A stretch of 64,000 bases of DNA from Candidatus Methanomethylophilaceae archaeon (lineage in GTDB: Archaea; Thermoplasmatota; Thermoplasmata; Methanomassiliicoccales; Methanomethylophilaceae), in NCBI GenBank assembly GCA_017524805.1, contig JAFXUX010000006.1, positions 389 through 64,388 of the forward strand, written 5' to 3'. Shown here piece after piece: positions 55,721 to 58,123 of this stretch. The notes beneath the pieces are model-generated. The model did not search any database. It was not told the DNA's origin and saw nothing but the letters and a program-made list of their open reading frames with translations. Positions within the stretch are counted from its first letter, which is position 1. Every line of letters starts with the position of its first letter. A program made the translations under genes and the position numbers.

Positions 55721-57072
55721 GTCGGATGGACGGACAGGTCCCATCAAAACTTCTTACAACCTTATCAAAAGCCGCGGATACCGTTCGCGGCCATGATTTC
55801 ATCCAAGTATATTCCCACTATGATGCCGACGGCGTATCTTCCGCGGCGATCGTGGCGAAAACCCTTCTCCGGATGGGCAAAGAATTCAGGGTCACGCTTT
55901 TCACAACGCTCAACGACCGCGGCATCGACATCATACGCGGATGCGGCGCGAAATGCGTGATCATAACCGATCTTGGCGCATCCTACATAGATCAGCTGGA
56001 CCAAATGCCCTTCGACGTCGTCGTGCTGGACCACCACACAATAATCTCCGAGGCGAAACGCATATGCTACGCCAATCCCCACCTTTACGGGATCGACGGG
56101 ATGACCTCCGGATGCGGCGCCACCATGTCGCTTCTGTTCGCGGTGGCTGTCGATGAGAAGAACTGGGATCTGGTCCAGATTGCGTTCGCAGGGATAGCCG
56201 GGGACAGGCAGCACATCAACGGGCTGTCCGGATTGAACACATATCTCCTTTCGGAAGGGGAAAGGCGCGGATACATCGAGAAGATGCCGGGATCGCTCAT
56301 ACCCGCGGGGGATCTGGCTGAGGGGCTGTATCTCCTCACCGACCCTTACATTCGCGGCGTCAGCGGAAGCAAAGAAGGCGTATCCGCGATTCTCAAGGAC
56401 GCCGGGATCCCGGAAGGGAAAAGCTATTCCGACCTGACGGACGAAGAAAGCAGGAAACTCTCGTCGCTGATGGCCATAAAACTGGCGTCCCAAGGCATGC
56501 TCCTGCAATCGATGGCCGAAGTTGCCCGCGACAGATATTATCTCAGAGGGCTGGACATGGACGCGGAAGTCCTGTCGTCCGTGCTAAACAGCTGCGGGCG
56601 CGCCGGAATGGGCGGAACAGGGATCGCCGCCGGCATGGGAGACAAGGCCAGCTTCGATTACGGATGCAAAATAACCAAAGAATCCGCCGAGCAAGTGGTC
56701 GCGTACATGGTGGATCTGGATTCCGCCGGGCTCAACCAGATGGAGCACATCCAGTGGTTCGACACCAGCGATTCCGGTTTCACCGGGATGCTTTGCGGCA
56801 TCGCCATGCAGTGCATAGGGGACCCAGACAAACCGACCATTGGCCTGAACAAATCCAACACTCCTGTTAACATATCCTCGAGAGGCATGTGGGGGCAGCT
56901 GGAGAAGGGCGTGGACCTTTCCGTCGCCATGAGAGAGGCCTGCTCATCGGTCGGAGGCGTCGGCGGCGGGCACAAAATAGCTTCCGGAGGATCCGTACCC
57001 CCAGACAAAGTGGATCAGTTCCTCAGAAATCTGGATGAGATAATCGGGAGGCAGCTCAGCTCCTCCACGTGA
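55717..57072 (+). CDS. DHH-family RecJ/Cdc45-like phosphoesterase
   Basis: [13 protein letters not shown] (DHH motif I-II), VVVLDHH (DHH). It is adjacent to S15, as is common in archaea. Start is GTG 55717 (GTGA overlap) or ATG 55726. Confidence 0.8.
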
Positions 57073-58039
57073 CCGGGACCTCGTCCGTCCTGAACCGCTG
57101 CCTGACCGCCGTCTCGGACACGTCCATTCTGACGCCGGCCGAATGCATCTCGTTTCCCAGCCATGCGATCATCGCCCCGTTGTCCATGCACAGCCTGCGG
57201 TCCGGGACGAACATCTCTGCGCCCCTGTCCGCGGCCATCTCAGTGACCATCTCCCTCAGACGCATGTTCTGGGCCACTCCTCCTCCCAGGAGAACCTCGT
57301 CCTTCCCTATGTGGGCCATGGCACGCTCGGTGACCTCGGTAAGCATCGCGAAAGCCGTCTCCTGCACTGACAGGGCTATATCCTCCAGACGAACGCCTTT
57401 CTTATACAGCGCAACCGCAGCGGTCATGAGACCTGAAAAGGCGACGTCCATGCCTTTGACGGAGTACGGCAGCTCATAGTACTTGTCGCCGTCCTTGGCT
57501 AGCTTCTCGAAGATCGGCCCGGCATAGAATCCCATTCCGAGCTCCCTCCCGAGCTTGTCTAGCATGTTCCCTATCCCTATGTCCTGCGTCTCGCCGAAAA
57601 TTCTGTAGAGCCCCTCTGAATAGGCTATGACCTGGGTGTTCCCGCCTGAGGCATAGAGAAGCGCCGGATCCTTGCAGCCGGTCTAGGCACGCCCTATCTC
57701 GATGTGCGCTATGCAGTGGTTGACGCCGATTATGGGCACCGACAGATAGCTGGACAGCGCTCTCGCCGCGGTGGCGGCCACCCTGAGACAGGGACCCAGC
57801 CCCGGACCCATGGAGAATGAGACCAGATCTATGTCTTTAAGATCCATCCCGGCCTTGTCAAGAGCCCCCGAGATTACGCGGGCAACAACGTCGGCATGAT
57901 GATTGGCCACCTCTCTGGGATGGAGCCCGCCTTCCTTCGGCTTGAACATATCGAGCTCGTTGGCATAGACATTGCATTCCGAATCGACTATGCCGACGCC
58001 CAAAGTGTGCGCAGTTCCCTCAATCCCGAGAGTGATCAT
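57056..58039 (-). CDS. kae1: Kae1 (tRNA t6A threonylcarbamoyltransferase) with one in-frame TAG at 57683..57685
   Basis: ORFs 57683..58099 and 57056..57565 are in one frame. Read together they give [18 protein letters not shown]…[38 protein letters not shown]…[12 protein letters not shown]…DNGAMIAW…. The start is taken at ATG 58039, and an upstream ATG lies at 58099. Confidence 0.85.
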
Positions 58040-58123
58040 GGCCGATGGAAAGCCAGCGCCGTTATTATATCCTGCCCCCGGAACGACGTGTGCTGCCATA
58101 GATAGAACCGATCGGATGCTTTG

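Follow-up and report, generated by a model that had tools for sequence, protein, structure and literature searches.

The subject of this work is kae1, the gene for the archaeal KEOPS enzyme of the TsaD/Kae1/Qri7 family that synthesizes threonylcarbamoyladenosine (t6A), in a 64,000-nucleotide stretch (hereafter the window) of contig JAFXUX010000006.1 from a Candidatus Methanomethylophilaceae archaeon (GenBank assembly GCA_017524805.1). In this stretch the gene appears as two minus-strand open reading frames (ORFs), 57683..58099 and 57056..57565, set apart by an in-frame TAG codon. A previous interpretation made without database searches, the sequence-only reading, had joined both ORFs into one Kae1 protein and proposed that the TAG is translated as pyrrolysine (Pyl) or by another suppression route. 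Here we examine the integrity of the gene, the reproducibility and origin of its TAG, the use of TAG elsewhere in the window and the presence of Pyl machinery in the genome, and we weigh the resulting case for read-through against its rivals.

The kae1 gene and its in-frame TAG

The two ORFs lie in one frame with a single TAG between them, and their joint translation scores 482.8 bits against the NCBIfam profile TIGR03722 arch_KAE1 (cutoff 375), spanning profile positions 2-323 of 323, which bears out their assignment to one Kae1 protein. The read-through product is 77-94% identical to full-length orthologues of 326-327 amino acids and shows no indel at the TAG relative to them. Its alignments with Thermoplasma acidophilum Kae1 (3eno) and Methanocaldococcus jannaschii Kae1 (5jmv), which have Val and Thr there, respectively, are gap-free at this point, whereas Pyrococcus abyssi Kae1 (2ivn) has a one-residue deletion exactly at the TAG position. 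The HCIAH-region, YASGGNTQ and CMDNGAMIA motifs match 2ivn, 3eno and 5jmv residue for residue and are invariant in 32 orthologues; the metal- and ATP-binding motifs concerned (H-x3-H, Y-x-SGGNTQ and DNGAM) have the ligand roles known from the P. abyssi structure. As had been stated, the next ATG lies 39 codons past the TAG and the intervening codons (120-158) include SGGNTQ; they also contain many invariant columns in the orthologue alignment.

The 5' end of the gene required revision. The N-terminal ORF had been taken to extend to 58099, which would add a MAAHVV... segment to the protein. In an upstream alignment with three related species, however, conservation starts only at a TATA-like box (Table 1). 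Because the relatives' proteins are 327 amino acids long and similarity to the sister species, represented by the metagenome-assembled genome (MAG) Tb.RUG.172, begins only at this box, we place the true start at the ATG at 58039 (MITLG...) and regard the extension as noncoding; the TAG is therefore codon 119. The position of the box, a putative promoter, suggests a leaderless kae1 transcript. The gene lies among the same neighbours as in the sister species (Na/Ala symporter, kae1, DHH phosphoesterase, S15, NUDIX and fibrillarin), occupying the syntenic position of that species' only kae1. No second intact kae1 was found among the close full-length homologues, all of which map to other species, a distant copy falling outside that scope.

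Table 1. Coordinates of the kae1 locus and of other features of the window
Feature	Position	Strand	Remarks
kae1 (KEOPS t6A synthase)	57056..58039	minus	327 codons counting the TAG; TGA stop at 57056..57058
In-frame TAG, kae1 codon 119	57683..57685	minus	Plus-strand cta; context GCC TAG ACC
kae1 codons 120-158, TAG to next ATG	57566..57682	minus	Encode TGCKDP...YASGGNTQ...; untranslated if the gene is split
TATA-like box	58062..58070	minus	ATATAATAA; precedes the MITLG start codon by about 27 nt
Sel1-repeat gene	4511..6433	minus	640 codons if read through; 13 Sel1 repeats
In-frame TAG, Sel1 gene codon 131	6041..6043	minus	Context CTG TAG ATG
HD-domain gene	24552..25202	plus	Sole credible TAG-ended gene (TAG 25200..25202); 216 aa at NCBI, MBR4503579.1
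MBR4503557.1 (IKP20_01015)	3372..4349		Exact protein match
Paralogous AAA_14/DUF4143 ATPase genes	53882..55147 and 58171..59412	plus	Flank the kae1 region
tRNA-Val	59588..59664		
1967-aa ORF	46049..51952	plus	No Pfam domain; conserved, at about 1864-1868 aa, in the sister species and other assemblies
DDE transposase (insertion sequence element)	38540..40096	minus	Close to tRNA-Leu(CAG) at 40893..40980

To establish whether the TAG is real, the DNA of TAG-bearing alleles was collected in 13 assemblies (L001-L012 and L016) from ENA, NCBI and Logan, representing several biological samples; exact-sequence matches to the truncated N-terminal product occur in NCBI, ENA, Logan and JGI data. Codon 119 is TAG in 13 of the 13 assemblies recovered, on at least five haplotypes, and none of them shows a frameshift or an extra stop in kae1. 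Being shared by at least 13 assemblies that derive from different pipelines and several samples, the TAG is not a base-calling error. The TAG alleles diverge by only 0.1-0.3%, with synonymous differences at codons 8, 9, 10, 222, 262 and 274 and a single conservative nonsynonymous one, N296S; a G133W change in one allele, situated at the extreme end of a contig, is probably an assembly artefact.

Two sequences seem to join parts of different origin. Assembly L006 (GCA_016295295.1) is identical to the window in the 5' part of kae1, TAG included, and divergent at the 3' end; it was considered as a deeply diverged TAG allele and left out as evidence, its 45 differences being confined to codons 262-319. 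P0130, from a 1582-bp NCBI contig, joins the window-type upstream MAAHVV... segment to a sister-type coding sequence with Gln at codon 119. Both could be assembly chimeras or products of recombination between close species.

The origin of the TAG was addressed by comparison with the species-representative genomes of 80 relatives. None of the 80 has an in-frame stop in kae1, and codon 119 is variable among them, encoding Leu in 37 species, Thr in 20, Gln in 16, Met in four, Val in two and Ala in one. The sister species, whose kae1 is 87% identical in nucleotides and 94% in amino acids and lies in the same gene neighbourhood, has CAG at this codon. The simplest history is one recent C-to-T transition, CAG (Gln) to TAG, assigned to the window's species because its sister has CAG. 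An AlphaFold model of the sister Kae1 (mean pLDDT, the predicted local distance difference test score, 81) places residue 119 in the last turn of a helix (residues 108-120) that carries the HCIAH motif and is followed by the 121-125 loop. Its location at a predicted helix end, coinciding with the P. abyssi indel, fits a position that tolerates substitution.

Selection on the gene was quantified as the ratio of nonsynonymous to synonymous substitution rates (dN/dS) between the window and the sister species, following Nei and Gojobori. Over the whole gene the ratio is 0.047 (dS 0.67); the part upstream of the TAG has 0.087, the part downstream 0.032, and codons 120-158 have 0.036 (12 synonymous and two nonsynonymous changes). 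Polarization of the changes with four outgroups assigned 47 synonymous and 11 nonsynonymous changes to the window branch, and 32 and 11, respectively, to the sister branch. Since the nonsynonymous-to-synonymous ratio on the window branch is not above that of the sister branch, constraint on the TAG-bearing branch is not relaxed and purifying selection is intact.

TAG usage in the window and a pyrrolysyl-tRNA synthetase in the genome

Stop-codon usage was tallied for the 47 non-overlapping ORFs of at least 150 amino acids in the window, which end in TGA (37), TAA (8) and TAG (2). One of the TAG-ending ORFs, at 18210..18674, was discarded as spurious, since it runs antisense to rpl21e and an RpoF-like gene, leaving about one credible TAG-terminated gene in 46, in a sequence where TAG makes up 21% of the stop trinucleotides in any frame and is as common as TAA. 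The chance of finding no more than one TAG terminator among 46 genes is 0.01 with a TAG rate of 13.5% and 0.0002 at 21-22%, rates resembling those of genomes without the Pyl system (Pyl-minus), and it rises to 0.43 at 4.1%, the published median TAG-terminator share in Methanomethylophilaceae that possess it (Pyl-plus; PMC12626013). TAG terminators are thus depleted in the window as they are in Pyl-plus genomes. Downstream of the stop of the remaining gene, which encodes an HD-domain protein, comes an AT-rich tail; it holds a second TAG after 12 codons and a TAA after 18, which would serve as back-up terminators should the first TAG be read through.

A second in-frame TAG supported by homology was found in a Sel1-repeat gene, where a 130-aa ORF (6041..6433) ends in TAG and a 509-aa ORF (4511..6040) follows in the same frame. 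Sel1 repeats are present on both sides of the TAG, one of them lying wholly upstream, and the 36-residue register runs across it; three homologues (P0255, P0257 and P0258) align gap-free over this point, with Leu at the TAG column. The 130-aa N-terminal piece recurs on seven contigs and is deposited at NCBI as a separate protein, MBR4503559.1. As the TAG is directly followed by ATG ATG, termination and restart would be a possible alternative to read-through in this gene. Internal TAGs with homology support thus occur in 2 of about 48 window genes, a rate in line with the 46 in-frame-TAG genes reported for isolate ISO4-H5 (PMC5011839) and with the 16 Pyl-containing proteins, a Sel-1 domain protein among them, predicted for Candidatus Methanomethylophilus alvus (Borrel et al. 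2014, PMC4153887). Extrapolated to the whole genome, this rate would amount to several dozen such genes. Other candidates were rejected: an in-frame TAG upstream of a RIO kinase ORF is spurious, TAGs upstream of the transposase ORF fall before the probable start of that gene and do not represent recoding sites, and a search of locus L017 of the sister species for more such codons yielded only noise from spurious high-GC frames.

The best Kae1 matches belong to Methanomassiliicoccales of the family Methanomethylophilaceae, most of which come from gut metagenomes of ruminant or other origin, and exact protein look-ups placed the window proteins in a PGAP-annotated MAG with the locus-tag prefix IKP20. 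This MAG encodes a pyrrolysyl-tRNA synthetase (PylRS), P0199, deposited as MBR4504345.1 and annotated as 'hypothetical protein IKP20_05190'. The search query was the M. alvus PylRS sequence, validated by its 100% match to P0135. P0199 scores 252.7 bits on TIGR02367 PylS_Cterm (cutoff 178), is 63% identical to M. alvus PylRS over its full length and, like that enzyme, has no N-terminal domain. Because P0199 and IKP20_01015, a protein of the window, have the IKP20 prefix in common, PylRS and the kae1 TAG can be assigned to the same genome. This assignment matters because the family comprises both Pyl-plus and Pyl-minus genomes (PMC12626013).

In six relatives, those with the PylS homologues P0254, P0241, P0145, P0229, P0216 and P0230, pylS adjoins pylB, pylC, pylD and mtmB genes that gene callers have split at their TAG. 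None of the six has a sample in common with the window's species; P0216 belongs to the same study series and comes from other samples. A Flavodoxin_2 gene that borders the pyl operon in relatives prompted us to follow synteny, through proB, past the window's right end, where CfbC/D-like genes and no pyl genes were found. Some 9.5 kb beyond the right end, a Flavodoxin_2-like gene (L133 4942..5319) is truncated to 125 amino acids, against 192 in relatives; the next 1 kb or so lacks called genes and includes a toxin-like remnant. This short ORF was rejected as a TAG-interrupted gene, as its stop is TGA.

Probable decoding of the kae1 UAG

These results make it likely that Pyl-tRNA inserts pyrrolysine at a tolerant site of kae1 that was altered by neutral drift, probably alongside some termination. 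In the scenario that we favour, this ruminant-gut methanogen family member would decode UAG through Pyl-tRNA(CUA), and the CAG-to-TAG change, affecting a variable position of Kae1, would have been neutral or nearly so before becoming fixed in the species. With Pyl-tRNA(CUA) and archaeal release factor 1 (aRF1) competing for every UAG, the outcome at codon 119 would be full-length, active Kae1 containing Pyl, with some ribosomes probably terminating to give a 118-aa by-product, and no special recoding signal would be needed. To our knowledge, Kae1 and t6A are universal, and Kae1 is essential in the archaea tested; read-through would therefore have to keep t6A synthesis going, which would make the Pyl system indispensable. 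We infer from the sequence evidence that the inserted residue is Pyl and that read-through is efficient enough for this purpose.

Several points weigh against this account. Full-length Kae1 is argued from sequence, as opposed to proteome or transcript. Neither pylT nor pylBCD is present within the window, these genes having been seen only next to pylS in the six relatives. No PYLIS-like structure, a stable stem-loop as in mtmB, was found 3' of the TAG, the 123 nt there having a folding energy of -32.3 kcal/mol, compared with a mean of -34.0 for shuffled sequences (z = 0.50); this is not decisive, because Pyl insertion requires neither a PYLIS-type signal nor a dedicated elongation factor (PMC12626013). 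UAG has a dual reading in M. acetivorans, as Pyl or as a stop (PMC12626013), and by analogy the kae1 UAG may give full-length protein in only a part of its translation events. The dN/dS estimates average over the whole branch and, if the TAG is very young, would say little about selection after it arose; selection since then would be visible only in the sparse polymorphism among TAG alleles, where counts are small. The previous claim that the TAG is translated and does not terminate probably has to be softened in its second half. Translation agrees with the collinear Kae1, the encoded PylRS and the dN/dS of 0.032 downstream of the codon, and the exclusion of termination is probably too absolute in view of the dual reading in M. 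acetivorans (PMC12626013) and of the window gene that still ends in TAG.

If the TAG were instead a true nonsense mutation, kae1 would be a young pseudogene, with Kae1 lost or nearly so and too little time elapsed for further decay. The slight divergence between TAG alleles would accommodate a recent mutation, and NCBI nr holds no Kae1 protein for the IKP20 MAG, which suggests that annotators took the gene as broken. We nonetheless consider this improbable, given the universality and essentiality noted above, the fixation of the TAG allele across several samples and haplotypes, and the mostly synonymous polymorphisms free of secondary lesions; moreover, with PylRS and a second read-through candidate in the genome, UAG would be suppressed anyway.

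Read-through might also proceed by a route other than Pyl, with near-cognate tRNAs (Gln, Tyr or Lys) or another suppressor inserting a canonical residue. The identity of the residue is deduced, the family includes Pyl-minus genomes (PMC12626013), and relatives have Gln or Leu at the two TAG sites, although Gln and Leu are simply one-step mutational neighbours of TAG. This route is unlikely, since PylRS in the same genome makes it unnecessary and TAG terminators are depleted as in Pyl-plus genomes; no suppressor tRNA was found in the window.

Still less credible is a split gene, in which residues 1-118 and 159-327 would be made separately and assemble into an active enzyme. Gene callers do output two ORFs, but a restart at M159 would leave out 39 core residues, among which are the invariant blocks YASGGNTQ and FGETxDxGxGN; the codons for this segment have a dN/dS as low as 0.036, and a split kae1 was seen in 0 of the 80 relatives. 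A sequencing or assembly artefact deserves practically no weight, the TAG being carried in all those assemblies by haplotypes that differ elsewhere.

Some further features of kae1 and its surroundings were recorded. The kae1 products of L063 (RGIG6046) and L046 (RGIG5104), P0003 and P0019, are 389-390 amino acids long, with an Arg/Ser/Pro-rich C-terminal tail extending about 63 residues past the usual ...VTWRS end; the usual stop seems to be absent there. The DHH/DHHA1 phosphoesterase gene, whose sequence overlaps kae1 at its 3' end, was called at 355 aa in L001/L133 (15717..16784) and at 451 aa in L002/L135 (7738..9093) within the same species, a discrepancy due either to disruption in some strains or to the assemblies. 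At the corresponding place the sister species (L013) lacks the AAA_14/DUF4143 gene that lies between kae1 and the Na/Ala symporter, and also the tRNA-Val, which suggests a local insertion or a mobile gene. The 1967-aa ORF and the transposase are listed in Table 1.

Significance and relation to known systems

The kae1 case provides a clean, datable natural instance in which a universal essential gene has acquired an amber codon by drift in a genome with a constitutive UAG suppressor, and a concrete target for measuring read-through efficiency outside Methanosarcina. Its practical consequence concerns annotation, since standard pipelines split kae1 or call it a pseudogene in the window's species, and wrongly lowered genome-completeness and core-gene estimates would follow for such MAGs. 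Tentatively, and with more doubt than confidence, UAG read-through may have become obligatory in this lineage, locking in the Pyl system as essential regardless of methylamine use, because a single-copy, universally essential kae1 would now depend on it. UAG would then be an almost dedicated 21st sense codon, one step past the ambiguous stop/Pyl state of Methanosarcina. Borrel et al. argued that an amber codon, once it arises in a coding sequence, would persist as a stable mutation, one that could make the Pyl system essential (PMC4153887). Confirmed read-through in kae1 would support this 'lock-in' idea, in that the Pyl machinery could not be lost without losing t6A.

The closest published parallels are M. 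alvus and ISO4-H5, which belong to the same family, have few TAG terminators (1.6% usage in M. alvus; PMC4153887) and carry in-frame TAGs in conserved genes with sense codons in their homologues elsewhere, among them those for DGGGP synthase, MtxX, Cas1 and adenylate kinase (PMC4153887, PMC5011839). Kae1 is absent from the M. alvus table and from the ISO4-H5 list (PMC4153887, PMC5011839), and we found no link between Pyl or amber codons and Kae1 in the literature searched. Unlike the genes on those lists, the recoded gene of the window encodes a universal, normally single-copy tRNA-modification enzyme, and the event can be dated to one species, the sister having CAG. The kae1 TAG is therefore a new example of a known phenomenon, in-frame TAGs in housekeeping genes having already been published for Methanomethylophilaceae, and it is well resolved yet unsurprising to the specialist.

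The methylamine methyltransferases MtmB, MtbB and MttB have in common with kae1 the decoding of UAG as Pyl by the same machinery, which in kae1 is predicted. There Pyl has a catalytic role at a site shared across taxa, whereas the position in Kae1 is variable and Pyl would most likely be a passenger. Another precedent is Thg1, the tRNA-His guanylyltransferase of Methanosarcina acetivorans, in which Heinemann et al. (2009, cited in PMC12626013) reportedly found Pyl, verified it biochemically and ascribed it to 'appearance by neutral evolution'. Like Kae1, Thg1 takes part in tRNA maturation and has its UAG at a site that is neither catalytic nor conserved; Pyl enters it without a dedicated signal and is reportedly dispensable for activity, as would be expected of Kae1. 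Thg1 differs in belonging to another archaeal order, in being another enzyme and in having biochemical proof, the kae1 case being argued from sequence.

A model for the probable decoding of the kae1 UAG is offered by the sensor kinase RdmS of M. acetivorans, a non-methyltransferase gene whose in-frame UAG, without a recoding element, serves both as a stop and as a Pyl codon (Shalvarjian et al. 2025, PMC12626013). RdmS differs in being non-essential and in that both of its forms are observed, whereas truncated Kae1 would presumably be waste, so that a high level of read-through would be needed.

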